Source: an uncultured Actinomycetota bacterium (GTDB lineage: Bacteria > Actinomycetota > Actinomycetes > Propionibacteriales > Nocardioidaceae). From it: a stretch of 64,000 nt of DNA. How positions within the stretch are numbered: position 1 is the first letter of the stretch; every line of letters begins with the position of its first letter. Both the position numbers and the translations under genes were made by a program. Below the pieces are notes generated by a model that saw nothing but the letters and a program-made list of their open reading frames with translations, made no database searches and was not told the origin of the DNA. This document shows, piece after piece, positions 14,070 to 31,075 of this stretch. The stretch covers positions 271,622 through 335,621 of the forward strand of contig CAVYGA010000002.1 of assembly GCA_963767955.1 (NCBI GenBank), given 5' to 3'.

Positions 14070-14275
14070 TCGGGGGATCGCGGGCAGGACGGGGCGCCGG
14101 TGGAGGCCACGGCACCGGAGGAAAGGCTACGCGATTCCTCCCCGGAGGCGTGAGTTGTCGGGCAATGTGCGCCCACGCCCGCCGGAGCGCGCCGGGAGGC
14201 GCGCCGCAGAGAAATGTCCACAAAGTAGTAACAAAACCGGTTCGCAGAGTCAATTGGGAACTTAGACTCCCCAAC

Positions 14276-15307
14276 ATGTTCCAGGCACTGCACTGGCCGC
14301 TGCGCGGCACCGCCCTGATGCTGGCGATCGCCGCCATGCTGCTCCCGACGACGACTCCCGCCCAGAGCGCCTCCAGCGCGGTGACTGCCTCCTGGCCGTC
14401 CGCCACGATGGTCCGCGGCTCCGCGCACGTCGTCACCGGCACGGTCGCCGACACCGGGTCGGTGGCGCTGGAACAGCGGGTGCTCGGTGGTTGGCGCTCG
14501 GTCGCCACCACCTCGTCGACGTCCACCGGCGCCTACTCCCTCAGGCTGCCGACCTGGTGGCTCGGCTCCCGGACCTACCGGGTGCGCAGCACCACCGCGG
14601 TCACGCGCGAGTGGCGGGCCCACGTGACCCCGCGCTACACGCCCCGCGGCAGGAGCTCGCAGTTCGACTACAGCTTCGACTCGATGACCCGCTGGAACCC
14701 GTGCACCGTCATCGGCTACCGCGTGAACGCCCGGCACGCCACGCGCGGCGCCCTGCGGGACACCAAGCGCGCGTTCGCCCGGATGTCCCAGGCCACCGGC
14801 TTCCGGTTCGTCTACCGCGGCCGCACCCGGGGGATGCCGACCACGGGCACCAACGACTGGTACCGCCCCGACACCCAGATCGTCGTCGCCTGGGCCAAGC
14901 CCAGCCAGTCCTCCCTGCTGAACGCCTACCCGAAGGCGGCCGGCGTCGGCGCCGCGATGGCCCGCACCGGCTACCGCAACGGCGACGGCAGCCGGACCAA
15001 CGTGATCAGCCGGGGCATGGTCGTCATCAACGCAGCGATGCGCCAGAGGCCCGGCTTCGGCGCCGGCCTGACCCGCGGCGACACCCTGATGCACGAGATC
15101 GGCCACGCCATGGGGCTCTCGCACGCCGGGGTCGCCAAGCAGATGATGTACGCCTACCTGACGCGCACCACCGCGCGGTTCGGCCGCGGCGACCTGCACG
15201 CGCTCGAGGCGCGCGGCAGCAAGCTGGGCTGCATCGACACCAGCGCACCCCGCGTCGCCGCCCGCGGCGCCGCACCCGCCGTGGCGGCCATCCGCGTGTC
15301 CCCCTGA
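14276..15307 (+). CDS. Secreted matrixin-like (M10 metzincin) metalloprotease
   Basis: Signal-peptide-like N-terminus; 'HEIGHAMGLSH' zinc motif followed by a Met-turn 'QMMY'. Confidence 0.8.
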   Translation: MFQALHWPLRGTALMLAIAAMLLPTTTPAQSASSAVTASWPSATMVRGSAHVVTGTVADTGSVALEQRVLGGWRSVATTSSTSTGAYSLRLPTWWLGSRTYRVRSTTAVTREWRAHVTPRYTPRGRSSQFDYSFDSMTRWNPCTVIGYRVNARHATRGALRDTKRAFARMSQATGFRFVYRGRTRGMPTTGTNDWYRPDTQIVVAWAKPSQSSLLNAYPKAAGVGAAMARTGYRNGDGSRTNVISRGMVVINAAMRQRPGFGAGLTRGDTLMHEIGHAMGLSHAGVAKQMMYAYLTRTTARFGRGDLHALEARGSKLGCIDTSAPRVAARGAAPAVAAIRVSP

Positions 15308-15308
15308 C

Positions 15309-15337
15309 CCTGCGGCGTCTCCCGGGTACGCCGCAGG
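15309..15337. terminator. Hairpin between convergent genes (probable bidirectional terminator)
   Basis: CCTGCGGCGT-N9-ACGCCGCAGG, 10-bp perfect stem. Confidence 0.6.
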
Positions 15338-15377
15338 CAGGGGAGGCAGCGGTGCCGCCACGCGACCCGCACCCGAG

Positions 15378-16613
15378 CTAGTCGAGCAGTCCGTCGCGCA
15401 GTGCCGCGGCCAGGGTCGGCGTCAGGGGCAGCCGCGGGATCAGGGTCGCCTGGACGGCGTGGTAGGTGTCGGGCTTGCCGTTCCACACGACGCCGCTCGG
15501 CCGGTTCTGCGGGTCCAGCTCGTGGCGCCAGGACCCCAGCTCCGGATCGAGGAACACCTCGGCGACGTGGTCCCACCAGGTGGCGTACCACGCGTCGTAC
15601 GCCGGGTCGCCGGTGGCCGCGTGCAGCGCGGCGGCCGTGGCCGTCGCCTCGGCCGCGACCCAGTGCATCCGCTCGCGCACCACGGGCGTCCCGGCCCAGT
15701 CGACGGTGTAGACGAAGCCGTCCGCGCCGTCGACCGCCCAGCCCTCCCGCACCGAGGCGTCGAAGAGCGCCACGGCGTCGTCGAGCAGCCAGTCCGGCGC
15801 CGTGGAGCCGAGCGCGGCCCGCAGGTGCAACGCCAGCCTGGCCCACTCCAGCCAGTGACCGATCGTCGCGCCGTAGGGTCGGAAGGGGTGGGCGGGCGTG
15901 TCCAGGTTGTAGTCCAGCAGCGGGGTCCACTGCTCGTCGAAGTGCTCCGGCAGCCGCCAGTCGTGGGTGGGGCCGAGGTCGTGGACCACCCGGGTGACGA
16001 TCCGCAGCGCCTTGTCCAGCAGGCTCCGGTCGCCGGTGGCGTCGGCTGCCGCGAGGAGCGCCTCGACCGTGTGCATGTTGGCGTTCACGCCGCGGTAGGG
16101 GTCCAGGGTCGAGAACGACTCGTCCCACTCCTCGACGACCATGCCGTGCGTCTCGTCCCAGAAGTGCGTGAGCAGCACATCGAGGGCCTCGTCGAGCAGG
16201 CCGGCCGCGCCGGGACGCCCGGCGCAGGTCGCGCTCGCGGCCGCGAGCACCACGAACGCGTGGGGATAGGCGCTCTTCTCGCGCGAGGTCGGACCGTCGG
16301 CGTCGACCGCGGCGTACCACCCCGCGCGTGCGTGGTCGCGGAAGCGTCCGGTCAGGGCACGCAGCCCGTGATCCACCAGGGCGCCCGAGCCGGGCCGGCC
16401 CATCAGGTGGCCGAGCGCGAACACGTGCGTCATCCGGCAGGTGATCCACAGCTCCACCGGCCGGTCGAGCCCGGGACGCCCCGAGACGTCGAGCCAGGCG
16501 AACCCGCCGGCCGGATGACGCGAGGCCCGGCTGAAGTCGAGCAGCCGGTCGGCCTCGGCCTCGAGCCAGCGCGCGTGCGCCGGCCGGCCGAGCCACGTGC
16601 TCGAGCCGGACAT
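15378..16613 (-). CDS. AGE-family epimerase/isomerase (YihS/D-mannose isomerase-like)
   Basis: 'WITCRMTHVFALG', 'KSAYPHAF', 'YRGVNANMHTVEA', 'TIGHWLEWARL', 'RMHWVAAEA', 'WRHELD', 'GKPDTYH'. Confidence 0.88.
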   Translation of the reverse strand: MSGSSTWLGRPAHARWLEAEADRLLDFSRASRHPAGGFAWLDVSGRPGLDRPVELWITCRMTHVFALGHLMGRPGSGALVDHGLRALTGRFRDHARAGWYAAVDADGPTSREKSAYPHAFVVLAAASATCAGRPGAAGLLDEALDVLLTHFWDETHGMVVEEWDESFSTLDPYRGVNANMHTVEALLAAADATGDRSLLDKALRIVTRVVHDLGPTHDWRLPEHFDEQWTPLLDYNLDTPAHPFRPYGATIGHWLEWARLALHLRAALGSTAPDWLLDDAVALFDASVREGWAVDGADGFVYTVDWAGTPVVRERMHWVAAEATATAAALHAATGDPAYDAWYATWWDHVAEVFLDPELGSWRHELDPQNRPSGVVWNGKPDTYHAVQATLIPRLPLTPTLAAALRDGLLD

Positions 16614-17584
16614 CACGAGCCCAGCGAGGAGTAGCGCTCCCCCACCGTGTACGTCGCCACGCCCAGCGTCGAGTCGCTCTGCCCGTAGTAGGCGAACCAG
16701 GTGCCCTTGAAGAGCACCAGGCCCTCGACGAACGTCACGTTGGAGACGAGGCCGTGGGTGTCCTCGTAGGTCGAGGGCTCCAGCCAGGGCCGGTTCATCT
16801 GCGCGAGGATCGTGCCCGGGTCGGCCGGGTCGATGAGCAGCTGCCCGCAGGTGTAGCGGACCGTGCCGTCGGGGTTCTTCACCGCCGCGTTGTGCACCAG
16901 CAGGATCAGCCCGTTGTCGGTGATGATCGGCTGCGGGCCGACCTCGACCAGGAACTCGCCGAACGTGCCCGGCCCGGTGGGGACCATCAACGGCTCGTCG
17001 TTGGGGCAGGGCTTCCAGTGGATCAGGTCGTCGGACCACGCGTAGTAGATCGAGCCCTCACCGAAGTACATCAGGTAGCGGCCGTCGATCGGCACCGACA
17101 GGATCCCGCCGGCCTTGCTCCAGGGGGCGTCCGAGCCGTTGCCCTGCGGCAGGAACGTGTTGAAGTCCGGGAACATCGGGCCGTGCTTGGTCCAGGTGAA
17201 CAGGTCGGTCGAGGTGGCCAGGCACAGCTGGGCCGACGTCCGGTCCCAGCCGGTGTAGGTCAGGTAGTAGGTGCCGTCGATCTCGGTGACCCGGGGATCC
17301 TCCGCCCCGAACTCCTCGTAGGGCTCGGTCGGCGAGAGCACCGGCTCCGGGTGCCGCTCGAAGTGGATGCCGTCCTCGCTGGTGGCGAGGCCGACGTGCG
17401 ACACGATGTCGTCGGCGTGGGCGCGGTAGAGCAGGACGACCTTGCCGTCCTTGACCACCGCGGCGGGGTTGTAGACGCTCGCGGACTCCCAGCCGTCTCC
17501 TTGCGGAGACAGGATCGGGTTCTTCTCGTAGGGGCGGAAGGGCCCGAGCGGGAAGGCTGTCGGGGCGTTGGCGTGTGCGGACAT
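16613..17584 (-). CDS. GH130 beta-mannoside phosphorylase (beta-1,2-mannobiose/oligomannan type by resemblance)
   Basis: 'YNPAAVV...LLYRA', 'GLATSEDGIHFER', 'GAEDPRV', 'YYLTYTG', 'KAGGI', 'NVTFVEGLV'. Confidence 0.85.
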   Translation of the reverse strand: MSAHANAPTAFPLGPFRPYEKNPILSPQGDGWESASVYNPAAVVKDGKVVLLYRAHADDIVSHVGLATSEDGIHFERHPEPVLSPTEPYEEFGAEDPRVTEIDGTYYLTYTGWDRTSAQLCLATSTDLFTWTKHGPMFPDFNTFLPQGNGSDAPWSKAGGILSVPIDGRYLMYFGEGSIYYAWSDDLIHWKPCPNDEPLMVPTGPGTFGEFLVEVGPQPIITDNGLILLVHNAAVKNPDGTVRYTCGQLLIDPADPGTILAQMNRPWLEPSTYEDTHGLVSNVTFVEGLVLFKGTWFAYYGQSDSTLGVATYTVGERYSSLGS

Positions 17585-17631
17585 GTTCGTTCCTCGTTCT
17601 CTGGTCATGGGGGTGGTGGTGCGGGGCGGGC

Positions 17632-19707
17632 TCAGCGACGGACGAGGGCGAACCCTCCGGCCGGCACCCTCACGGTGACCGTGCGGGCTCGGGTGACCGA
17701 CGTGCTGACGGGGCGGCCCTGGCCGTCGTAGGTGCGCACCCGGGCCCTGCCGGTCCCGCCGACGCGGACCCTGGCCCGCTCGGCCGAGGTCGAGGCGCTG
17801 CGCAGGAGGGCCGTCCCGTGACCGTCACCGGACAGGACCAGCCGGGACACGAGGGGTTCCAGCATCACGGCGTCGAGCGCGGCCGGGTCGCCGTCACCCG
17901 TGACCGTGGTCGCGGACAGCCGGGTCGCCCGGGCGGGCAGGGTCCTGGGCAGGGTCACCGGCAGCAGTGCCCCGGGAGCCGGGGAGTCCCCCTGCGCTCC
18001 GATGTCGCCGGAGGCGGCACGGCCCAGGACCTTCCCTGCCGCGCGGAACGTGGTGACGGCACCACTGCCCGGGCGGAGGTCGAGCACCGGCAGGACGAGC
18101 GAGCGCCGGTGGGCGGGCAGGGCCAGCGTGGTGGAACCGCCGTCGCCGAGGGCGGCGTAGCCGGAGCCGCTGTAGAGCGACTCCCCCGTCCACAACGAGG
18201 GCGGGACGGTCGCGGAGGCCGCACCGGCCAGGGTGCCGTTCTCCGCCTCGACGGTCAGCGTCCCCCGGCGGGTCACGATGTCGGCGGTCCGCGCCAGCGC
18301 CGCGACCTTCGGCTCCTGGTCGAGCGCGATCATCGACAGCAGCCCGTGGATCGTGGACTCGGCCCCGGAGTTGTGGTTGACCTCACCGGAGCTGGAGATG
18401 CCGTCGAAGGTCCGCCCGGTGGCCGGGTCGTACATCGCCTCTCCTGCGGGGTTGGCGCCGAAGTACCACGCCGCGACGATCCCGGCGAGGCCGTAAGCGG
18501 CGTCCTTCCCGGTGGCGTCGGCGGTGGCGAGCAGCGACTGCAGGCGCGAGTCCGCGCCGTAGGCGATCTGGGAGGCGTCGCCCCGGGTCGGCAGCCGGCC
18601 GTTGTCGGGGCCACCCGAGGTCAGCAGCCACGGGTCGAAGGTGAAGGAGTCGCGGGTGGCGCCGCGCGCCAGGCCGCGATCACGCAGGGTGACGGACGCC
18701 TGCGCCAGGGCGGCCGGCATCTGGCTGCCCCAGCCGTGCCAGATCGATCGCGACAGCGCCCACGGCCGGATTGCTCCCATCGGCCAGGTGCGCGCGTTTC
18801 CGCGACCGAGCTGCGCGATGCCCTTGCTCAGCTTCGCCAGGGCGGTGCGGGCCCGGCGGGAGGCGCCCGCCTCGACGTACGCCGCGAGACCGAGGACGGC
18901 CTCGGCCGTGGCATCCGCCCCGTCCGCGATCAGCCAGGCCGGCGTGCGCTCGCCGTCGATGTCCAGGTGGTCGCCGTACCGGTCGAGGACCTGGCGGTCG
19001 ACGGCGCCGATCGACAGCTCGAGACGCTGGCGGAGGAACCGCGCGAAGGCGGGGTCGGCCTTCTCGAAGGCCGCGTAGCCCTCACCGAGGGCCCAGATCG
19101 TGCGGGCCACCCAGTAGGACGCGTCACTGTCGGACGGGTCGGGCAGCTCCACGGGTTCGGCGCTCGGGTTCAGGGTCCCGTCGGGCTGCATCCACAGCAC
19201 CACGTTGCCGGCGTCCGGACCGGACGCCGTCTGGAGGTAGGTGAGACCGCGGAGCATCTCGTACGCCGCGTCCCTGCTGGCCCGCGAGCCGGTCGCCTGC
19301 CAGTGCCGCAGGTAGACGACCGCGGCCCGGCTCACGTCATCGGCGTTGAACGCGCCCTGTCCCCAGGTGTCGGTCTCCGGGTGGTAGTCCCCGCCGCCGA
19401 CGTGCCGGAAGCTGCCGTCGGGGTTGGGCTCGGCATAGGTCCACAGCACCCCGATCTCGGGCTCGTCCGCGAGGCGGTACGTCGTGTGCCGCTCCTGGTG
19501 CGGCGGGGTCACCGGCACCGAGAGCCAGTCGAGGTGGTCCAGGTTGGTCAGCGTCCCGGAGGCCGCGGGACGCGGGGCCGCCGCGGTCGCAGCGCGATCG
19601 GTCGCGACCGACGGCAGGGCCGGGGTCGCGACCGCCAGGCCGGCGACCAGGCTCACGGTGAGGGCGAGCAGGCGTCGCCACGGTCGAGGTGCGGGGGTGT
19701 GGTCCAT
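17632..19707 (-). CDS. Secreted uncharacterised protein, probable (alpha/alpha) glycosidase-like fold plus C-terminal beta-sandwich
   Basis: Signal peptide 'MDHTPAPRPWRRLLALTVSLVAGLAVATPALP'; 'FNADD', 'TFDGI...VNHNSGAESTI'; lies inside a sugar operon. Confidence 0.6.
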   Translation of the reverse strand: MDHTPAPRPWRRLLALTVSLVAGLAVATPALPSVATDRAATAAAPRPAASGTLTNLDHLDWLSVPVTPPHQERHTTYRLADEPEIGVLWTYAEPNPDGSFRHVGGGDYHPETDTWGQGAFNADDVSRAAVVYLRHWQATGSRASRDAAYEMLRGLTYLQTASGPDAGNVVLWMQPDGTLNPSAEPVELPDPSDSDASYWVARTIWALGEGYAAFEKADPAFARFLRQRLELSIGAVDRQVLDRYGDHLDIDGERTPAWLIADGADATAEAVLGLAAYVEAGASRRARTALAKLSKGIAQLGRGNARTWPMGAIRPWALSRSIWHGWGSQMPAALAQASVTLRDRGLARGATRDSFTFDPWLLTSGGPDNGRLPTRGDASQIAYGADSRLQSLLATADATGKDAAYGLAGIVAAWYFGANPAGEAMYDPATGRTFDGISSSGEVNHNSGAESTIHGLLSMIALDQEPKVAALARTADIVTRRGTLTVEAENGTLAGAASATVPPSLWTGESLYSGSGYAALGDGGSTTLALPAHRRSLVLPVLDLRPGSGAVTTFRAAGKVLGRAASGDIGAQGDSPAPGALLPVTLPRTLPARATRLSATTVTGDGDPAALDAVMLEPLVSRLVLSGDGHGTALLRSASTSAERARVRVGGTGRARVRTYDGQGRPVSTSVTRARTVTVRVPAGGFALVRR

Positions 19708-19772: not shown

Positions 19773-20594
19773 TCAGCCCTTCACACCCGACCCGATGTCG
19801 GTGGTCGTGAAGTGCTTCTGGAACGCGACGAAGAGCGCCACCGCAGGAGCGGAGAGCACCACCGCGCCGGCCAGGATCGCGCCGTACGGGTTCGCCGCGC
19901 GGCCGGCCACGTTGCTGATGTAGTTGGCCAGCGCGACCGCGAGCGGCTGCATGTCGGCCTCCTTGGTGACCAGGAACGGCCAGAGGAACTCGTTCCACGG
20001 GCCGATGAACGTCAGCAGGGTCGCGGTCATCAGCGCCGGACGCACGAGGGGCATCGCGATCGACCACAGGATGCGGAGCTCGCCGGCGCCGTCGAGGCGG
20101 GCGGCGGCGAACAGCTCCTCCGGCAGGCTCAGGAAGAACTGCCGGAAGATGAACACCGCGGTCGAGTTGATCGCGAACGGCGCGATCATCCCCAGGTAGG
20201 AGTCGGCCAGCCCGTAGGTGCGCACGATCATCACGTAGATGGGGATGATCAGCAGCTGGAACGGGATGATCTGCACCAGCAGCATGACGGCGAAGAGGGT
20301 GCCGTTGCCGCGGAAGTGCAGCCGGGCCAGCGCGTAGCCGGCCAGGATGCCGAAGACGACGGTCCCGAGCAGCACGCCGCCGGTGAAGATCCCCGAGTTG
20401 GCCAGCGACTGGAGCAGGTTCACCCGGTCGTTGATCGCGAGGTAGTTGTCCAGCGTGTAGCCGCTGGTGGGGATCAGGCCCCCCAGCGACGTGTCGGGGT
20501 CCAGCTGGAGCGAGCTGACCAGCATGTAGTAGAAGGGGAACAGGAAGATCAGGGCGCCGACGTACAGCACCAGGTGTCGCAGGATCCGGCTCAT
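19773..20594 (-). CDS. Carbohydrate ABC transporter permease (MalG-like)
   Basis: 'SLPEELFAAARLDGAG' EAA loop, 'FIGPWNEFLWP'. Confidence 0.93.
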   Translation of the reverse strand: MSRILRHLVLYVGALIFLFPFYYMLVSSLQLDPDTSLGGLIPTSGYTLDNYLAINDRVNLLQSLANSGIFTGGVLLGTVVFGILAGYALARLHFRGNGTLFAVMLLVQIIPFQLLIIPIYVMIVRTYGLADSYLGMIAPFAINSTAVFIFRQFFLSLPEELFAAARLDGAGELRILWSIAMPLVRPALMTATLLTFIGPWNEFLWPFLVTKEADMQPLAVALANYISNVAGRAANPYGAILAGAVVLSAPAVALFVAFQKHFTTTDIGSGVKG

Positions 20595-20595
20595 G

Positions 20596-21528
20596 TCAGT
20601 CCCTCTCCAGCAGCTTCTTGCTGCCCAGGGAGAGCAGCAGCACGGCGATCACGAGCAGCACGCCGATCGCGGCGGCGGTGTCGGGGTTCCCCTGCTCGAT
20701 GCCCTTCTGGTACATCACCAGCACCGGTGAGGTGGACGCCCCGTTGGGCCCGCCCCCGTTGGTGAGCAGGTAGGGCTCGGTGAACAGGTTGGCTCCGGTG
20801 ATGGTGGCCAGGATCAGCACCAGCGTGGTCGCCGCCCTGACCCCGGGCACCGTGACGTGCCAGAACGACTTCACGCGACCGGCACCGTCGGTGGCGGCGG
20901 ACTCGTAGAGCTCCTTCGGCACGTTCTGCAGGGCCGCCAGGTAGAGGAGGACCGACATCCCGAGCTGTTTCCAGGTCACGAACAACGCGATCACCGGCAT
21001 CGCCAGGCCGCTGTTCACCAGCCAGGAGGGGTCCGGCGCCAGCGGCCCGAGCAGCTGGTTGACCATCCCGCCCCTGCTGAAGAGGAACAGCCACACCGCC
21101 ACCAGCGCGACGCTGGCGGTGACGTACGGCGCGAAGAAGGCGACCCTCAGGAAGGTGCGGCCCCGGATGGCGCCGTTGAGCGCCGCGGCCAGGACCAGCG
21201 AGAGTCCGACGGTGAGCGGCACGTTGATGACCAGGAACTGGGCCACGTTCACGAACGACTCCCGCACATCGGGGTCCTCGAGGACGGTGCGGTAGTTCTC
21301 CAGCCCGACGAACGGCCGGTCCACCTGCGCGCCGGGTGCGGTGAAGAAGTAGTCGTGGAAGCTGATCCACACCGCCAACCCGAGCGGGTAGGCGAACACC
21401 ACGGCGAGGAACACCGCATAGGGAGCGGAGAACACGATCCCCAGGGGCTGGCGGCCCAGCAGGGCCGCCAGCCTCGAGCGGGAGCGCGCCGGAGGGGTCC
21501 GGTCCGCGGTCTCGGTGTGAGCACTCAT
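20596..21528 (-). CDS. Carbohydrate ABC transporter permease (MalF-like)
   Basis: 'FVGLENY', 'YLAALQNVPKELYESAATDGAG'. Confidence 0.93.
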   Translation of the reverse strand: MSAHTETADRTPPARSRSRLAALLGRQPLGIVFSAPYAVFLAVVFAYPLGLAVWISFHDYFFTAPGAQVDRPFVGLENYRTVLEDPDVRESFVNVAQFLVINVPLTVGLSLVLAAALNGAIRGRTFLRVAFFAPYVTASVALVAVWLFLFSRGGMVNQLLGPLAPDPSWLVNSGLAMPVIALFVTWKQLGMSVLLYLAALQNVPKELYESAATDGAGRVKSFWHVTVPGVRAATTLVLILATITGANLFTEPYLLTNGGGPNGASTSPVLVMYQKGIEQGNPDTAAAIGVLLVIAVLLLSLGSKKLLERD

Positions 21529-21542
21529 GGTCGGGCTCCGGC

Positions 21543-22826
21543 TCAGGACTGACCGGCGAGCTCGGTGATCTCGTCAGCCGCGCCAGGAAGCGCGTCGTCC
21601 GGAGGCGTCTCGCCGAAGATCACCGAGGAGGAGTACGCGTCACGGAACTTCTGCCAGATCTCGATCGAGTTCGCGACGTTGGGGACCTCGACGGTCCGCG
21701 ATGCCTGGTCCGCGAAGCTGACGTACTCCGGGTGGGACTCGAAGTAGTCCGCGTAGGTGCCTTCCAGGTCGCTGCGCAGCGGCATCTGACCGGTCATCTC
21801 CAGCAGCTTGCCGTCCTGCTCCTCGCTGGACGCGAACTTCAGGACCTCCCACGCGGTGCCCTGGTTCTCGCAGGCCGAGTAGAGCCCGATGTTCTTCGCG
21901 TCGGAGAAGGTGTGGGTCTCCTCCGGGGTGGTGCCGGCCGAGGTCGGGACCGGAGCGGCGCCCCAGTTGACCGAGTCGCCGTAGACCGAGATCGCCCAGG
22001 GGCCGACGATCGACATCGCGGCCTTCTGGTCCGCGAAGGAGTCACCGTTGTACTTCTCCTTCGGGGAGAACCCCTCGTCGTACATCGTCTTCCAGAACCC
22101 CGCGACGCTCTTGCCGGCGTCGGAGTCGAAGGTCGCCTCACCGTCCTCGACCAGCTGCTGTCCACCGGTCTCCGCGGCGTAGAGCGGGTAGAAGTCGAAC
22201 CAGGACTGGAAGAACTCGCTGGTCGGCGCGGGCCAGATGGCTGCGTCCGCGGCACCGCTGTCGACGATCTTCTTGCTGGTGTCGAAGAACTCGTCGTACG
22301 TCGCGAGGGGCGGGTTCTCCGGGTCGACGCCGGCCTTCTTCATGATGTCCTTGTTGTAGAAGATCATCACGGGGTTCGACTTCCACGGGATCTGGTAGAG
22401 CTGGCCGTCCGGCGACTGGTACTGATCGGCGACGTCACCGCTGCGCGACTCGACATAGTCCTTGCCACCCTCGAAGCTGTCCAGGGCGACGAGCCCGCCC
22501 TGCTTCTGGAACTGCGGTACGGCGGCCGGGGAGGTGTTGAACACCAGGCACGGCGCGTTGCCCGCGGTGATCGCGGCGCCGATGACCTCCTCGGAGGTCT
22601 TCCCTGCCGGGATCTCCTGGGCGGTGACCTTCTCGTCGGGGTGCTCGGCGTTCCACGCCTCGACCATCTGCTTGCCCCAGGCGATCTCCTCGGGGTTGTT
22701 CGACAGCCAGACCTTGATCGGGCCGGTGGCCTCGGTGTCGCCGGAGTCTCCGGAGCCACCCCCACACGCGGCGGTCGCGCCCAGCGCCAGCAGGGCGAGT
22801 GTTGCGGTAGCTACCTTCGATCTCAT
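21543..22826 (-). CDS. Sugar ABC transporter solute-binding lipoprotein
   Basis: Lipobox 'ATAAC', SBP family 1 pattern 'YQIPWKSNPVMIFYNKD'; GGAG SD before ATG 22826. Confidence 0.92.
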   Translation of the reverse strand: MRSKVATATLALLALGATAACGGGSGDSGDTEATGPIKVWLSNNPEEIAWGKQMVEAWNAEHPDEKVTAQEIPAGKTSEEVIGAAITAGNAPCLVFNTSPAAVPQFQKQGGLVALDSFEGGKDYVESRSGDVADQYQSPDGQLYQIPWKSNPVMIFYNKDIMKKAGVDPENPPLATYDEFFDTSKKIVDSGAADAAIWPAPTSEFFQSWFDFYPLYAAETGGQQLVEDGEATFDSDAGKSVAGFWKTMYDEGFSPKEKYNGDSFADQKAAMSIVGPWAISVYGDSVNWGAAPVPTSAGTTPEETHTFSDAKNIGLYSACENQGTAWEVLKFASSEEQDGKLLEMTGQMPLRSDLEGTYADYFESHPEYVSFADQASRTVEVPNVANSIEIWQKFRDAYSSSVIFGETPPDDALPGAADEITELAGQS

Positions 22827-22878
22827 CTGTGTCTCCATTCGTGTGCTGCAGGGGGCAGCTGGGTTGCTCGGGGCTTGC

Positions 22879-23904
22879 TCAGGGTTGGTGCGGGGGGACG
22901 GGGCCGCTCGAGCCGCGGACGACGAGACTCGGCGCAGGGAGCTGGAGGTCGGTGGCGGGGCGCTGGTCGACCAGCTCGAGCAGCCGGGTCGCCGCCGCCC
23001 GCCCCCAGCCGATGACGTCGGTGCTGACGCTGGTCAGCGACGGTTGGACGTGGGCGGCGAGCTCGGTGTCGTCGTAGCCGGTGACCGACAGCTGGCCGGG
23101 CACGTCGATCCCGAGCCTGGCGGCGACCGCGAGGCCGGCGATCGCCATCAGGTCGTTGGCGTAGACGATCGCGGTGGGGGGCGTGGCCAGCTCGAGCAGC
23201 TCCCGGGTGGCGAGCGCCCCGCCCTCGGCGGAGAAGTCGGACTCGACGTGCGGGCCCGCGGTCAGGCCGCTCGCGCGCAGGGTGGCTGCCCAGGCGTCGT
23301 GCCGCGATCGGCCGTGCACCATCTGGGTCGGGCCCGAGACGTGCGCGATGCGGGTGTGGCCCTGGGCCGCGAGATGCTCCACGGCGGCGGCGATCCCGGG
23401 GCCGTCGTCGACGCCGACCGCGGGCCAGTACGCCTCCGGCAGCGCCGGACCCACGATCACCGCGGGGAGTCCAAGCTCGGCGAGGAACGCCGGACGCGGA
23501 TCGTCGACGAGCAGGTCGGTGACGAAGACACCGTCGACCCGGCCCTCGTCGCTGAGCCGGCGGTAGGTCTGCAGCTCGCCCTCGTGCTCCGGGACCACCT
23601 GGAGCAGCAGCGCGTAGCCGTGACGGGTCAGCTCGCTCTCCACGCCGGCGATGAAGGACGGGAAGAACGGGTCGGCGCGCAGCGTCTCGGGCGGTCGGGC
23701 CATCACGAGTCCCACGGCCAGGGCCCGGGAGACCGAGAGCGCCCGGGCCCGCGAGCTCGGGGTCCAGCCCAGCTCACCGGCGACGGCGAGGATCCGGGTC
23801 CGGGTCTCCGGCGCGAGCCCCGCGCGGTTGTTGAACGCGAACGAGACGGCACCCTTGGAGACGCCCGCGGCACGGGCGACGTCGTTGATGGTGGGCCGGG
23901 GCAT
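22879..23904 (-). CDS. LacI-family transcriptional regulator
   Basis: HTH 'TINDVARAAGVSKGAVSFAFN'; 'PTAIVYANDLMA', 'LSVTGYDD', 'LTSV'. Confidence 0.95.
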   Translation of the reverse strand: MPRPTINDVARAAGVSKGAVSFAFNNRAGLAPETRTRILAVAGELGWTPSSRARALSVSRALAVGLVMARPPETLRADPFFPSFIAGVESELTRHGYALLLQVVPEHEGELQTYRRLSDEGRVDGVFVTDLLVDDPRPAFLAELGLPAVIVGPALPEAYWPAVGVDDGPGIAAAVEHLAAQGHTRIAHVSGPTQMVHGRSRHDAWAATLRASGLTAGPHVESDFSAEGGALATRELLELATPPTAIVYANDLMAIAGLAVAARLGIDVPGQLSVTGYDDTELAAHVQPSLTSVSTDVIGWGRAAATRLLELVDQRPATDLQLPAPSLVVRGSSGPVPPHQP

Positions 23905-23912
23905 GTGCTCAC

Positions 23913-23926
23913 CTAAACCGGTTTAG
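23913..23926. promoter_or_regulatory. LacI-type operator overlapping the operon promoter
   Basis: Perfect 14-bp palindrome CTAAACCGGTTTAG with central CG, between a minus-strand TTGACA (23940-23935) and the lacI ATG. Confidence 0.8.
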
Positions 23927-24072
23927 TAGCGCCGTGTCAAGGGGTGACCGTCGATCCGCTCCGTCCCGCGCCCGGGCCGTCGACGTCCTCTTGTACCCTC
24001 GTCCCGGGCAGCCTGAGGCAGGGACGGCACCCTCCTGCGGGGGGTCTCGTGCACCGTCTCGTGCTGCTTGTC

Positions 24073-24145
24073 GCCCCAGTAGCTCAGCGGATAGAGCAGC
24101 CGCCTCCTAAGCGAAAGGTCGCAGGTTCGACTCCTGCCTGGGGCA
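24073..24145 (+). tRNA. tRNA-Arg(CCT)
   Basis: GCCCCAG/CTGGGGC acceptor, GCTC/GAGC D stem with A20, anticodon loop CTCCTAA, T arm GCAGG-TTCGACT-CCTGC. No encoded CCA; the anticodon stem has 2 mismatches. Confidence 0.88.
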
Positions 24146-24160
24146 CCGCGCCAGACCCGA

Positions 24161-26640: not shown

Positions 26641-26767
26641 TCCAGTCCGGCCCGCCCCATCCGACTCATTTCTCGCGGCCGACCGACGAACCGCCCGACC
26701 GACCGGACGACCCTGGGGTGGGGACCCCGGAGACCGGGCTCGGGCGGCCGGCCTCAGCCGACCGGCC

Positions 26768-27937
26768 TCAGTCGACGACCTCGAAGCCCATCCCGGCCTT
26801 CTGGAGGCGGGTGAGCAGGTTGTCGCCCATCGCCACGGCGGTGGTGACCTGGCCCGCGGTCGGCGGGTTGGTGTCGAAGGCCAGGCAGAGCGCGGACTCC
26901 CCCAGCATCATCGCGGTCTCGGTGTAGCCGGGGTCGCCGCCGGAGACCCGGGTGTGCAGACGCCTCCCACCGGCCTCGGCGACGAAGTCGACGGTGAACC
27001 ACGCCTTGCGACGCCGGGTCTCGGTCGGTCCCTGGCCCCGCGGCATCCGCTTCTCGAGCAGGCTGCGCACCGGCCCGACCTGCGCGGCCAGCCCCAGCGC
27101 GGTGATGCCGGCCGTCGCCCCGGCGGCGTAGCGCAACGTCTTCAGGCCGGCGTAGTGGGAGTAGCGGAACTTCGGGCCGTACGACGCCAGGGCCGCGCCG
27201 CTGCGCGCCACCACCGTCGGGTCGATGGTCGGCAGCGGCAGCAGCCAGTAGCCGAGCAACGAGTCGCGGTGCGGCTTGCCGGCGACCGCGCGGGACGAGC
27301 GACCCTCGGGACGCCCCTCGGCCTTGCGCCGCTCGGCGTAGGCGGACCGCATCTGCCCGACCCGAGACATCGCGCCGAGCGCCGAGTGGAAGGTGCCGCC
27401 CGACATGCTGGCGTTGGTGCGGACCACGCCGCGGACCGTCACCGGCCCGTCGGTCGGCAGCTGCTGGAGCGTGTAGTAGACGCCGAGGTCGTGAGGGATG
27501 GAGTCGAAGCCGCAGGCGTGCACGATCCGGGCACCCGAGGCGACCGCGGTCTCGTGATGGGCGAGCCACATCCGGTCGACGAACTCGGGCTCGCCGGTCA
27601 GGTCGACGTACGCGCTGCCGGCCGCGGCACACGCGGCGACCAGCGGCTCGCCGAGCTCGAGGTAGGGCCCGATCGTGGTGGCCACGACCTTGGTCCGGGC
27701 GGCGATCTCCGTCAGTCCCGCGGTGTCGGAGGAGTCGGCGACCAGCAGGTCCATCACCTCGAGCCGCGGGTCGATCCCGGTCAGCCGGTCGCGCACCGCC
27801 TCGAGCTTCTCCATGCTCCGCCCGGCCAGGGCCCAGCGGAGCCGGGCCGGGGCGTGCCGGGCGAGGTAGGCCGCGGTCAGCCCGCCGGTGAAACCGGTCG
27901 CGCCGAACAGGACGATGTCGTAGTCGCGTTGCGCCAT
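26768..27937 (-). CDS. Saccharopine dehydrogenase-like / trans-acting enoyl reductase family oxidoreductase
   Basis: 'YDIVLFGATGFTG', 'TTIGPY...GEPLVAACA', 'YVDLTGE', 'CGFDSIPHDLG', 'GDPGYTETA'. Confidence 0.88.
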   Translation of the reverse strand: MAQRDYDIVLFGATGFTGGLTAAYLARHAPARLRWALAGRSMEKLEAVRDRLTGIDPRLEVMDLLVADSSDTAGLTEIAARTKVVATTIGPYLELGEPLVAACAAAGSAYVDLTGEPEFVDRMWLAHHETAVASGARIVHACGFDSIPHDLGVYYTLQQLPTDGPVTVRGVVRTNASMSGGTFHSALGAMSRVGQMRSAYAERRKAEGRPEGRSSRAVAGKPHRDSLLGYWLLPLPTIDPTVVARSGAALASYGPKFRYSHYAGLKTLRYAAGATAGITALGLAAQVGPVRSLLEKRMPRGQGPTETRRRKAWFTVDFVAEAGGRRLHTRVSGGDPGYTETAMMLGESALCLAFDTNPPTAGQVTTAVAMGDNLLTRLQKAGMGFEVVD

Positions 27938-27970
27938 GGCCCCACTCTGCCCCACGCCCGGTGGCGACGG

Positions 27971-27996
27971 GGAACCGATCCGCCGGCCGGGCCGTC
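27971..27996 (+). promoter_or_regulatory. Candidate ECF-sigma promoter
   Basis: GGAAC-N17-CGTC ending 8 nt before ATG 28005. Confidence 0.45.
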
Positions 27997-28004
27997 CCAC
28001 CCCC

Positions 28005-29930
28005 ATGACCCGCACTCCCGATCTCTCCCGTCTCGTCACGTTGCGCCGCGCCGGCATCGGTGCGGTGGCGCTGGCCGCCCTGGCCGGCTCGTTCGCCGTC
28101 GGTGCCGCCTGGCAGGACGGCTCCCCGCCCCGCTCGGGCCGGCTGGTGGCCGCTCCCGACGGCCCGGTCGACCCGCGCTCGGGACCGGGCCTGGTGTCCG
28201 CGGACTCCTGCGACCAGCTGCTCGCGTGGTACGTCGACCACACCGTCGACCGCGTCACCGCCTGGGGCTGGGACGACGTCCGGATCTATGCGATGGAGGA
28301 GTCCACGATGGGCGGGGACGACGCCGCCTCCACACCGAAGTCCGACGACGTGACCTCGAGCGACACCGGGACCAACGTCCAGGAGACCGGCGTCGACGAG
28401 CCCGACGTGGTCAAGACCGACGGCTCCCTGCTGGTGCGGGTCGACGGCGACGAGCTCACGACGTACGACGTCACCGGCGCGACGCCGCGGCGGCTCGGCG
28501 GCCTCACGCTGCCGGGCGTCGACGACGACAACGGTGAGGGCGGTGGGGCCGAGCTGCTGCTCGTCGGTGACCGCGCGGTGGTCCTGGGCACCCACCGTCA
28601 GCAGTTCGACCAGGGCGACCTGATCACGATCGTGCAGACCGTCGACCTCGCGGACCCGGGGTCTCCCGAGCTGGTCGCCGAGCAGACCTACGACGCGGAC
28701 CTCCTGTCCGCGCGGCAGTACGGCGACACCGTGCGGCTGGTGGTCGGGTCCGGGCTGCCCGACCTCGACTTCGTGCAGCCCGAGGGCGACCGCAGCGAGC
28801 GTGAGGCCCGGGCCGAGAACCGCGCGATCGTGCGCGCCAGCACCCTCACCGACTGGTTGCCCACCGTCCGCGACGACGGCGGGGAGGCCGGGCTGCTCCC
28901 CGACTGCGCGGCGATGCGGCTGCCGGCCGGGTTCTCCGGCGCCGGCAGCGTCGTGGTGGTCGGCTTCGACCCGGGCGAGCCCGCCGGCCCGGCCACGCGC
29001 AGCGTCACCGGGGTGGCCACCGCCTCGACGATCGTCTACTCCTCGACGGACCGCCTCTACCTCGCCACCAGCACCGGCTGGGCGCGGGGGTGCTGCGTGC
29101 TGGTGGACGGACCCCGCCCGTTCGACGACGGCGGGAGCACCGACCTGCACGCGTTCTCGCTCAGCGACGACGACGCGACGTACCTCGGCTCCGGGGAGGT
29201 GGACGGCTCGGTCGCGGACCGGTGGGCGATGGACTCCGCCGACGGCGTGCTCCGGGTCGCGGTCGGCGCGACCAGCGAGACCGGCAACTTCAACTCCGTG
29301 GTCACCTTCGCCGAGCGCGACCGTGCGCTGGTCGAGCTCGGCCGGGTGGACCGGCTCGGGGTCGACGAGCAGATCAAGGCGGTGCGCTGGTTCGACGACC
29401 TGGCGTTCGTGGTCACCTTCCGGCAGACCGACCCGCTCTACGCCGTCGACCTGGCGGACCCGGCGGCCCCGCGGGTGCTGGGCAAGCTCAAGATCCCGGG
29501 CTTCAGCGAGTACCTCCACCCGATCGGCGACGACCTGCTGCTCGGTCTCGGCACGGACGCGGACCTCGACGGGTCGACCCGGGGCGGCCAGGCCGCGGTC
29601 TTCGACGTCTCCGACCTCACCGACCCGCGGCGGGTCGCGACCCACGGCTACGGCATGGAGCGGCACACCCGCGCGGGCCAGGACCCGCGCCAGTTCACCT
29701 GGCTGGCCGACCGGCGCACCGCGCTGACCGTGGTCGAGCAGTGGGGCGACAGCGGCGGCGCCAGTGGCATCATCTCGATCCTCCGGGTCGGCCCGGACGG
29801 CGAGCTGACCGCTCGGCGGGTGGCCGGCGCCTACGGCTACGGCGACGTCGCCACGCTCCGGACCGTGCCGCTGCCCGACGGCCGGGTGGTGCTCTCGAGC
29901 GTGGAGCGCACCGAGTTCCTGGACCTGTGA
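28005..29930 (+). CDS. Secreted/anchored beta-propeller domain protein (Beta_propel family)
   Basis: 'SDTGTNVQETGVDEPDVVKTDG', 'RFFDDLAFVVTFRQTDPLYAVDL'-type segment, 'GKLKIPGFSEYLHP'. Confidence 0.85.
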   Translation: MTRTPDLSRLVTLRRAGIGAVALAALAGSFAVGAAWQDGSPPRSGRLVAAPDGPVDPRSGPGLVSADSCDQLLAWYVDHTVDRVTAWGWDDVRIYAMEESTMGGDDAASTPKSDDVTSSDTGTNVQETGVDEPDVVKTDGSLLVRVDGDELTTYDVTGATPRRLGGLTLPGVDDDNGEGGGAELLLVGDRAVVLGTHRQQFDQGDLITIVQTVDLADPGSPELVAEQTYDADLLSARQYGDTVRLVVGSGLPDLDFVQPEGDRSEREARAENRAIVRASTLTDWLPTVRDDGGEAGLLPDCAAMRLPAGFSGAGSVVVVGFDPGEPAGPATRSVTGVATASTIVYSSTDRLYLATSTGWARGCCVLVDGPRPFDDGGSTDLHAFSLSDDDATYLGSGEVDGSVADRWAMDSADGVLRVAVGATSETGNFNSVVTFAERDRALVELGRVDRLGVDEQIKAVRWFDDLAFVVTFRQTDPLYAVDLADPAAPRVLGKLKIPGFSEYLHPIGDDLLLGLGTDADLDGSTRGGQAAVFDVSDLTDPRRVATHGYGMERHTRAGQDPRQFTWLADRRTALTVVEQWGDSGGASGIISILRVGPDGELTARRVAGAYGYGDVATLRTVPLPDGRVVLSSVERTEFLDL

Positions 29931-29960
29931 CGGCCGGGTGCCGCGGCGTATTCTCTCCGC

Positions 29961-30230
29961 ATGTGCCGCAACATCCGCCAGCTCCACAACTTCGAGCCGC
30001 CCGCCACCCGTGACGAGGTCAGCGCCGCCGCGCTGCAGTACGTCCGCAAGGTCAGCGGCGCCACGCGTCCCTCCCAGGCCAACCAGGCCGCCTTCGACGA
30101 GGCGGTCCGGGAGGTCGCGCACATCACCCAGCACCTCCTCGACGCGCTGGTGACCGCCGCCCCGCCCAAGGACCGCGCGGTCGAGGCCGAGAAGGCCCGG
30201 GCCCGCGCCCAGCTGCGGTACGGCGCGTGA
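29961..30230 (+). CDS. DUF2277-family small protein
   Basis: 'MCRNIRQLHNFEPPAT.DE..AAALQYVRKVSG'. Confidence 0.85.
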   Translation: MCRNIRQLHNFEPPATRDEVSAAALQYVRKVSGATRPSQANQAAFDEAVREVAHITQHLLDALVTAAPPKDRAVEAEKARARAQLRYGA

Positions 30231-31075
30231 GCCTGGCACCTGCCGCGTCGGCACGTGAGGTGCCGGGACGGCAACGGGAGGTCTGCGCGTTCCTGCGCGA
30301 CCGGCCCCTGGTGGTGCTCACCGGCGCCGGGGTCTCGACCGACTCCGGCATCCCGGACTACCGCGGTCCCGGCTCGCCCAACCGGCTGCCGATGACCTAC
30401 GGCGAGTTCGTCTCCGGTCCCGACGCGCAGCGGCGCTACTGGGCCCGCAGCCACGTCGGCTGGGCGCGGATGGGCGACGCCTCGCCGAACGCCGGCCACC
30501 GCGCCCTGGCCGCGCTCGAGGCGCGCGCGGCGGTGGACCTGCTGATCACCCAGAACGTCGACGGCCTGCACGAGGCGGCCGGGTCGCGGGCGCTGGCCCT
30601 GCACGGCCGGATCGCCGACGTGGTCTGTCTGGGCTGCCGGACCATCGCGTCCCGTCGGGCGCTGCAGGCCCGGATGGAGGAGCTCAACCCGGGATATGCC
30701 GAGACCCACGCCGCCGCGTCGTCCCGGCCCGACGGCGACGTCGAGCTCGACGACACCGCGGACTTCCGGGTGCCCGGGTGCGGGACCTGCGGCGGGCCGC
30801 TCAAGCCGGACGTCGTGTTCTTCGGCGAGAACGTGCCGGCGCCGCGGGTGCAGCGCAGCTATGCCGCCGTCGAGGGGCTCGCGGACCGCGACGGCGCCCT
30901 GCTGGTCGTCGGCTCGTCCCTGACCGTGATGTCCGGGCTGCGGTTCGTGAAGCGGGCCGCCAGGATCGGTGTCCCGGTGGTGATCGTGAACCGCGGGACG
31001 ACCCGCGGCGACGAGCACGCGACGTACACCCTCCACGCGGGGTGCAGCGAGTTCCTGACCGACCTCGCGCCCTAG
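30227..31075 (+). CDS. Sir2/CobB-family NAD-dependent protein deacylase
   Basis: 'TGAGVSTDSGIPDYRG', 'TQNVDGLH', CxxC...CxxC, 'KPDVVFFGE', 'GSSL'. Confidence 0.93.
   Translation: MSLAPAASAREVPGRQREVCAFLRDRPLVVLTGAGVSTDSGIPDYRGPGSPNRLPMTYGEFVSGPDAQRRYWARSHVGWARMGDASPNAGHRALAALEARAAVDLLITQNVDGLHEAAGSRALALHGRIADVVCLGCRTIASRRALQARMEELNPGYAETHAAASSRPDGDVELDDTADFRVPGCGTCGGPLKPDVVFFGENVPAPRVQRSYAAVEGLADRDGALLVVGSSLTVMSGLRFVKRAARIGVPVVIVNRGTTRGDEHATYTLHAGCSEFLTDLAP

Follow-up and report, generated by a model that had tools for sequence, protein, structure and literature searches.

An exported six-hairpin protein from a Nocardioidaceae sugar-uptake operon as a candidate extracytoplasmic beta-1,2-mannan hydrolase

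The 64,000-nucleotide stretch of DNA analysed here, referred to as the window, comes from an uncultured bacterium of the family Nocardioidaceae (Actinomycetota; assembly GCA_963767955.1, contig CAVYGA010000002.1, positions 271,622 to 335,621) and carries a minus-strand operon that encodes, in order, a LacI-family repressor, the solute-binding protein of an ATP-binding cassette (ABC) importer, two permeases, an exported protein of 691 amino acids, a glycoside hydrolase of family GH130 and an aldose-ketose isomerase. The exported protein, encoded at 17632..19707 on the minus strand (a span that includes the stop codon), belongs to the family of the Yersinia pestis protein YPO2471 and its crystal structure 7TEM. 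It is the subject of this study, and we consider it a candidate for an enzyme that cuts beta-1,2-linked mannan outside the cytoplasm.

The gene starts with an ATG at 19707, seven bases 3' of a GAGGA motif, and ends with a stop codon at 17632-17634, giving 692 codons with the stop and 691 residues without it. A first-pass annotation of the same DNA had placed the gene correctly but left its strand, which is minus, unstated, and its length of 692 amino acids counts the stop codon. The plus-strand frame of 17632-19707 was rejected as an artefact of the high G+C content (about 72% in the window), its translation being a low-complexity run of Arg, Gly and Pro without support. The nearest homologs of the minus-strand product occur in Nocardioides and other Nocardioidaceae; among the candidates scored, 2911 homologs were found at E ≤ 1e-3, and clustering at 50% identity gave 1164 groups. 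An AlphaFold2 model of the protein has a mean predicted local distance difference test score (pLDDT) of 91.8 and a predicted template modelling score (pTM) of 0.90. Because of the number of homologs, their many clusters and the confident model, we regard this as a real gene and not a chance open reading frame (ORF). The sequencing runs listed for the sequence are DNA runs, mostly from soil metagenomes, with no RNA run in the list.

The N-terminus reads as a signal peptide of 35 residues (19603..19707, minus strand), MDHTPAPRPWRRLLALTVSLVAGLAVATPALPSVA followed by TD, with twin arginines at R11-R12, a hydrophobic core and an SVA cleavage-type site; no lipobox Cys was seen in this part of the sequence. 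It is followed by an Ala/Pro linker modelled with low confidence (residues 36-50), and pLDDT falls below 50 at residues 1-8 and 23-45. Since nearly all of the 45 homologs inspected also carry signal peptides, the sequences indicate that the protein is exported. The first-pass annotation had read a signal peptide with twin Arg, and both are present, but export by the twin-arginine translocation (Tat) route is not established, because the arginine pair occurs in only 19 of the 45 homolog signal peptides. Its further statement that this is the only exported catalytic candidate holds within the operon, as judged by a Pfam scan of the operon genes.

The model predicts with high confidence an (alpha/alpha)6 barrel followed by a module resembling carbohydrate-binding modules (CBMs) of families 6, 35 and 36. 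The candidate catalytic domain (residues 51-472; 18292..19557, minus strand) was delimited from the DSSP assignment of the model and the match to 7TEM, and consists of short beta elements (residues 51-120) packed on a twelve-helix barrel (residues ~120-470), whose DSSP helices span 122-464. The CBM-like beta-jelly roll (residues ~476-619; 17851..18282, minus strand) was also modelled separately, with a pLDDT of 91.6, and matches CBM36/35/6 modules by structure (7ay3, Z 14.0, root-mean-square deviation (rmsd) 2.7 over 119 residues; 2vzp, Z 13.9; 1ux7, Z 13.7). In the AlphaFold2 models a small beta-sandwich (residues 620-691; 17635..17850, minus strand) closes the chain, so that the probable C-terminal beta-sandwich reported earlier is borne out and resolves into two domains. 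Some other members of the family bear CBM9 modules or CWB2 cell-wall anchors.

In structure searches with the barrel, 7TEM stands far ahead of the other matches. The next ones level off at Z 19-25 and are (alpha/alpha)6 proteins: cellobiose 2-epimerases and further AGE enzymes, alpha-mannanases of GH76, MmpH (a methylmannose polysaccharide hydrolase), and members of GH88/105, GH8 and GH9 among others. With GH76, GH88, GH105, GH8, GH9 and GH15-like neighbours at Z 18-24, and a matching pattern of conservation, the model bears out the proposed (alpha/alpha)-barrel of six-hairpin glycosidase type. The predicted fold is glycosidase-like, and not one unrelated to glycosidases, the outcome that the first-pass annotation had set against its own proposal.

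The acidic motifs noticed at first reading are all found, as FNADD (D123-D124), GADATAE (D265) and TFDG...NSGAESTI (D435, E450), and occupy the best-conserved positions of the family alignments. The Asp pair (19336..19341, minus strand) lies at the N-terminus of barrel helix 1; D124 is invariant in 38 sequences and both Asp residues are kept at 94% in 123 sequences. E450 (18358..18360, minus strand), at the N-terminus of helix 11, is invariant in the family alignment A1. The polar columns conserved at 89% or more in the 123 sequences are H58, Y91, D123, D124, R127, Q159, W199, R202, W205, W258, D265, W323, H324, W326, Q380, Y383, W414, N419, D435, E450, S451 and T452, among which H58 and H324 are kept at 93-99%; no Cys column reaches 85% in this alignment. 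By secondary structure, the conserved residues are placed at the N-terminal ends of helices 1, 3, 5, 7, 9 and 11 (starting at 122, 198, 264, 330, 382 and 449) or slightly ahead of them, and the N-terminal face of alternate helices is the usual sugar-binding side of six-hairpin enzymes. D123/D124 and E450 would be the candidate catalytic carboxylates, with D265 and D435 nearby. The invariant Asp and Glu of the barrel hold across roughly 25-30% identity and several phyla, and short proteobacterial forms keep the barrel and drop the CBM.

No Pfam (E ≤ 1) or NCBIfam family matches the protein, an NCBIfam valine-tRNA ligase line at E 0.31 being noise, and, apart from CBM9, Pfam searches of 38 relatives gave no more than scattered weak matches to GH9, Pec_lyase and C5-epim_C. 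The proposal that the protein lies outside known families agrees with this, and Pfam, NCBIfam and the open-access literature yielded no CAZy family of known activity to which it could already belong. The label "uncharacterised" stands insofar as no assigned family or activity was found, but it does not extend to structure, since 7TEM belongs to the family. This structural-genomics entry, deposited as "putative exported protein YPO2471", is the sole close solved relative (phmmer E 1.2e-33 over residues 117-470; Foldseek E 2.9e-23, template modelling (TM) score 0.87 by target; structure comparison Z 40.9, rmsd 2.1 over 389 residues, 28% identity). Both proteins are exported and have in common the motifs DDxxRA, WHGxG, QIAY, W..N, YxPxTG..DG and NSGAESTI; YPO2471, at 427 amino acids, is a short form that lacks both the CBM-like domain and the C-terminal beta domain. 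No paper on the function of YPO2471 was found in the open-access literature, where "7TEM" turns up only in AlphaFold benchmarking papers. Because it has no sequence relationship to GH76 or AGE profiles, and because the Cys/Zn centre of GH127 has no counterpart in it, the family is a distinct one inside the six-hairpin fold.

In the ESM Atlas, the neighbours found by language model are clusters of the family itself, and their automatic names, such as "GH76 family protein", are unreliable and without Pfam support. Barrels that look alike by structure in the ESM Atlas are fused to SBP_bac_1 solute-binding domains in Gemmatimonadota, and others, in Pseudomonadota and Bacteroidota, are fused to GT4 glycosyltransferase domains (TM 0.48-0.49, a structural likeness only). 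These GT4 fusions are the only backing found for the tie between the GAEST motif and glycosyltransferase-linked domains that the first-pass annotation had suggested. Two metagenomic proteins (P0233, 542 amino acids; P0269, 1092 amino acids) appear to join a GH130 to a barrel of this family, either as true fusions or as merged calls of adjacent genes.

The other genes of the operon, all on the minus strand, point to the uptake and intracellular breakdown of a sugar. The LacI-family repressor gene (22879-23904; PF00356, PF13377) comes first. The solute-binding protein (21543-22838; PF01547) is extracellular and has its best Protein Data Bank (PDB) match in Listeria Lmo0859/4GQO (E 6.7e-33), which may belong to the Listeria beta-1,2-mannobiose cluster. 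Permease 1 (20596-21528) and permease 2 (19773-20594) both match PF00528, and no ATPase gene lies in the operon. Downstream of the target gene, a GH130 protein of 331 amino acids (16613-17608; PF04041, E 3.4e-53) is of the beta-1,2-mannosidase, or hydrolase, type; its N-terminus shows no signal peptide, and its best PDB match is BT3780/5A7V (E 3.7e-53). It keeps the BT3780 residues E141/D142 (EDPR), E227 (YFGEG) and E268 (LVEVG), the last two being the glutamates that replace the phosphate site (PMC4599007). The lysine K199, which confers beta-1,2 specificity on BT3780 (PMC4599007), is probably kept as well, the segments being SKAGGIL in this GH130 and CKSGSIL in BT3780, with HMMER gaps placed differently there. 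Since both phosphate-site-replacing glutamates and the E141/D142 pair are kept, this GH130 is predicted to act by hydrolysis, with free mannose as the product. The last gene, whose ATG overlaps the GH130 stop codon, encodes a YihS-type aldose-ketose (mannose/fructose, sulfoquinovose) isomerase of the AGE family (15378-16613; PF07221, E 1.8e-113; PDB matches 2rgk/2afa/7ag4, E about 1e-132). Such isomerases interconvert mannose, fructose and glucose, and its presence fits a hydrolytic route. On its upstream side the locus is bounded by a tRNA-Arg(CCT) gene (24073-24147, plus strand) that immediately precedes the promoter region of the operon.

Related loci were collected with a 9-sequence alignment, taking one genome per species, and the motif NSGAESTI[EH] by itself drew out at least 591 relatives; the loci analysed are the best 80 of these, all from Actinomycetota. 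A GH130 gene is adjacent in 72 of the 80, the binding protein and permeases are present in 71-72 and LacI in 67, so that the protein does appear as the exported partner of an ABC importer, as had been suggested. Two layouts are found. In the Nocardioidaceae type (34 loci) the gene is followed by a hydrolase-type GH130 and then by YihS, the latter in 30 of the 34; in the second (40 loci; Micromonospora, Kribbella, Microbacteriaceae and others) a different GH130, closest to the beta-1,2-mannobiose phosphorylase 7FIP, lies between permease 2 and the target gene, and YihS is missing. YihS is thus seen only beside the hydrolase-type GH130, the pattern to be expected of an enzyme that uses up free mannose. 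In most actinobacterial loci GH130 is the sole recognised sugar-cleaving partner (by a similarity check, with a Pfam scan for the window and a few loci only), which makes a mannose homo-oligomer the probable imported sugar.

The association with GH130 reaches distant members of the family. One (P0205) lies directly after a GH130 gene; another, of 818 amino acids with a CBM9 (P0226), sits in the order LacI, binding protein, permeases, homolog, DUF624, GH130; and a third (P0165) adjoins a phosphomannomutase-family gene. A Sphingomonas plasmid and an Ideonella genome carry the short form (422-432 amino acids) in the order homolog, binding protein, permeases, GH130, DUF1861, with a TonB-dependent receptor upstream in the Ideonella locus only. 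The Ideonella GH130 matches the beta-1,2-mannobiose phosphorylase Lin0857 (E 1.9e-104), and its DUF1861 protein matches the Leishmania mannogen mannosyltransferase/phosphorylases (MTPs; E 3.6e-46). The Ideonella locus (L093) also encodes, at 14509-17299, a GFO/IDH/MocA oxidoreductase and a fusion of a ROK kinase and an AGE epimerase, which suggests that the downstream route for released mannose differs there from that in Nocardioides. Across sampled genomes the barrel is found in 13 of 301 Actinomycetota and 8 of 61 Nocardioidaceae; of these 61, 10 have GH130 and 51 lack both. All eight target-bearing Nocardioidaceae genomes have a GH130 match about 0.8-2 kb from the target, and the two genomes with GH130 only are fragmented assemblies. 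This co-occurrence is to be read as description, not as a statistical test, the relatives not being independent.

A perfect 14-bp palindrome, CTAAACCGGTTTAG (23913-23926), lies between a TTGACA hexamer (23935-23940, minus strand) and the lacI start, and is a putative LacI operator; both the hexamer and the palindrome were recognised by eye. It occurs once in the 3.88-Mb genome. The palindrome, or a variant with at most two mismatches, is present in 65 of the 80 related loci, mostly just upstream of lacI; it is kept across the Nocardioidaceae, Micromonospora, Kribbella and Microbacteriaceae loci (L004-L083), in the latter groups frequently as two tandem copies some 20 bp from each other. An extra copy lies 50-150 bp upstream of the target gene in loci where this gene has a transcript of its own (L045, L053, L062 and L067). 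Since the palindrome precedes the gene where it is transcribed alone, the gene appears to belong to the same regulon even off the shared transcript. Scanning for promoter and terminator consensus sequences yielded three terminator-like sites, no excess over shuffled sequences (mean 1.5), and nothing resembling a promoter.

This context, an adjacent GH130 of the beta-1,2-mannoside clade and a sugar ABC importer under one regulator, fits a locus for beta-1,2-mannoside utilisation. From fold, export and context we consider it, on balance, probable that the protein is an extracytoplasmic hydrolase of beta-1,2-mannan or beta-1,2-oligomannosides and founds a new glycosidase family. The exported enzyme would cut beta-1,2-linked mannan or oligomannoside chains outside the cytoplasm, candidate substrates being protist reserve glycans of the mannogen type and yeast-wall beta-1,2-oligomannosides, and would yield short beta-1,2-manno-oligosaccharides. 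The binding protein and two permeases could then import these fragments, with an ATPase encoded elsewhere; in the cytoplasm, the GH130 beta-1,2-mannosidase would free mannose and the YihS-type isomerase would turn it into fructose, the entire operon being controlled by the LacI repressor acting at CTAAACCGGTTTAG. For the narrower proposal, that the family represents the first endo-acting beta-1,2-mannanase, a "mannogen/beta-1,2-oligomannan hydrolase" deserving a new CAZy family with 7TEM as its solved structure, we find the case slightly short of evenly balanced.

The cytoplasmic enzymes of beta-1,2-mannoside metabolism that have been characterised are the GH130 phosphorylases and mannosidases and the GT108 mannogen enzymes, and the characterised relatives of the cytoplasmic enzymes conserved alongside the target act only on beta-1,2-mannosides. 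An exported six-hairpin protein co-regulated with such genes is the obvious candidate for the missing extracellular step. The earlier proposal of a glycosidase that releases the imported oligosaccharide agrees with the locus and with the modelled fold, hydrolysis itself being still an inference. Mannan in general, the substrate on which screening had been advised, seems unlikely, since the neighbouring enzymes point to beta-1,2-mannosides; for that reason a screen on beta-1,4- or alpha-mannan would probably miss the activity. No endo-beta-1,2-mannanase, and no function for this family, was found described in the open-access literature.

Several observations weigh against a beta-1,2-mannan hydrolase. 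The fold is equally near to AGE-type epimerases (Z 25.3) and to GH76 (Z 23.9), and because the two likenesses are equally strong the fold is no proof of hydrolysis; comparison of the family profile with those of GH76 and YihS finds nothing, and no member of the family, the crystallised YPO2471 included, has a measured activity. That the conserved carboxylates share one pocket is read from helix positions in the secondary structure of the model. An adjacent GH130 is lacking in 8 of the 80 loci, where six to eight copies of the gene stand alone, two of them (L030 and L044) with contig ends beside the gene and hence uninformative, and a distant member from a vent metagenome (P0247) is accompanied by ABC genes and a CBM9/DUF5916 protein and lacks GH130. 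The GT4-fused look-alikes hint that related barrels may work in glycan synthesis. To our knowledge, beta-1,2-mannan is known so far mainly from Leishmania-type protists and Candida walls. A natural source of it for soil bacteria is unknown, a point already made for bacteria that phosphorolyse beta-1,2-oligomannan, for which neither a source nor an extracellular enzyme producing beta-1,2-oligomannan was known (PMC4264767).

A first alternative, which we judge rather unlikely, is that the protein hydrolyses another bond in a heteroglycan bearing beta-1,2-mannose, whose beta-1,2 part is handled only inside the cell. It could attack fungal mannan as a GH76-like endo-alpha-mannanase, or it could release beta-1,2-oligomannoside side chains from an alpha-mannan or phosphate anchor. 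GH76 enzymes are indeed among the top structural neighbours (6shm, Z 23.9; 4c1s, 4mu9/BT3782 and 6u4z, Z 22.7-22.9), and this family has an invariant adjacent Asp pair that may be comparable to the pair used by GH76, but the GH76 profile is absent from the protein's own genome and hhalign gives a probability of 1.6% for a relationship with GH76. Although the Bacteroides GH130 beta-1,2-mannosidase BT3780 sits in yeast-mannan loci (PMC4599007), no alpha-mannosidase of GH38/92/125 type and no further glycosidase lies beside the gene here. GH130 is the sole recognised partner in most of the loci checked, and the operator was found at this operon alone within the genome, which also counts against this alternative.

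A second alternative, clearly improbable in our view, makes the protein a non-hydrolytic six-hairpin enzyme (an epimerase or isomerase, a transglycosylase or a chain-length modifier) that remodels the glycan or oligosaccharide outside the cell before uptake. After 7TEM the best structural match is a cellobiose 2-epimerase (4z4j, Z 25.3, rmsd 3.2 over 342 residues), with several AGE enzymes next, H58 and H324 are conserved and might correspond to the catalytic His pair at the centre of the AGE barrel, and some relatives show weak PF06662 C5-epimerase matches, to which the GT4-fused look-alikes may be added; yet neither PF07221 nor any other epimerase profile matches the protein, and, as glycosidases do, it conserves mostly carboxylates and Trp. 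Export and the frequent presence of CBMs set this family apart from the known AGE enzymes, which work on small sugars in the cytoplasm, and a locus left without a depolymerase could not use a polymer at all. Finally, a non-catalytic glycan binder that concentrates substrate at the cell surface for the transporter, to which the CBM-like module and the lack of any member with known activity might point, is very improbable given the dedicated solute-binding protein already in the operon, the deep conservation of Asp and Glu in the barrel, and the short proteobacterial forms that keep the barrel and lose the CBM.

If the protein is indeed a beta-1,2-mannan hydrolase, the orphan crystal structure 7TEM would gain a function, and a new glycosidase family and activity would be added within a familiar locus logic. 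The enzyme would be a tool for cutting mannogen and Candida beta-mannosides, of relevance to parasite and fungal biology. It would also mean that soil bacteria harvest beta-1,2-mannan, and the spread of the family over Actinomycetota, Alpha-, Beta- and Gammaproteobacteria and Chloroflexota would make this polymer a regular carbon source for them. Should it prove to be another kind of enzyme, its very tight link to GH130 would still make it worth study.

Outside the operon, a convergent gene downstream (14150-15307, plus strand) encodes a protein of 385 amino acids with only a short zinc-metallopeptidase motif match (HExxH-type; matrixin/M66/reprolysin). Further along the window, a 664-amino-acid protein with the beta-propeller domain PF09826 (27936-29930, plus strand) overlaps an opposite-strand ORF of 1166 amino acids without a family (26754-30254, minus strand), and of this pair only the PF09826 protein has support.

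Among known systems, the GH76 endo-alpha-1,6-mannanases (6shm, 4c1s, 4d4a) resemble the protein in their (alpha/alpha)6 barrel (Z 22-24, rmsd 3.0-3.6 over about 300-330 residues) and in being secreted, mannan-directed enzymes with an adjacent Asp-Asp motif, a mannan role that for our protein is a proposal. Identity is only 6-11%, however, the protein has no PF03663 match, the hhalign probability given above was obtained with the family alignment against actinobacterial GH76, and the genomic partners are beta-1,2-mannoside enzymes and not alpha-mannosidases. The AGE superfamily (cellobiose/mannobiose 2-epimerase, YihS) supplies the best structural match outside the family (4z4j, Z 25.3; 5x32, Z 23.8), but there is no profile relationship, the hhalign probability for the family against the operon's own YihS being 0.7%, and the operon has a separate gene for a true AGE member, of the YihS type. 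The GH127/GH146 beta-L-arabinofuranosidases (PF07944) share the order of barrel and beta-sandwich (Foldseek 6ex6, E 9e-8), and some short members of the family show faint PF07944 matches; the protein itself has none, and because no Cys column is conserved in the family, it lacks the Cys nucleophile and the Cys/Glu zinc site that make up the catalytic centre of GH127. A parallel in locus logic is offered by the GH144/GH162 endo-beta-1,2-glucanases. These were not among the 50 best structural matches, which does not in itself exclude a relationship, and the sugar would be mannose instead of glucose. In GH144/GH162 loci an extracytoplasmic (alpha/alpha)6 enzyme cuts a beta-1,2-linked homopolymer, the fragments enter by way of a binding protein and ABC importer, and cytoplasmic phosphorylases or glycosidases finish the breakdown. 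By analogy, we infer that the protein described here may do for mannose what these (alpha/alpha)6 endo-beta-1,2-glucanases do for glucose.

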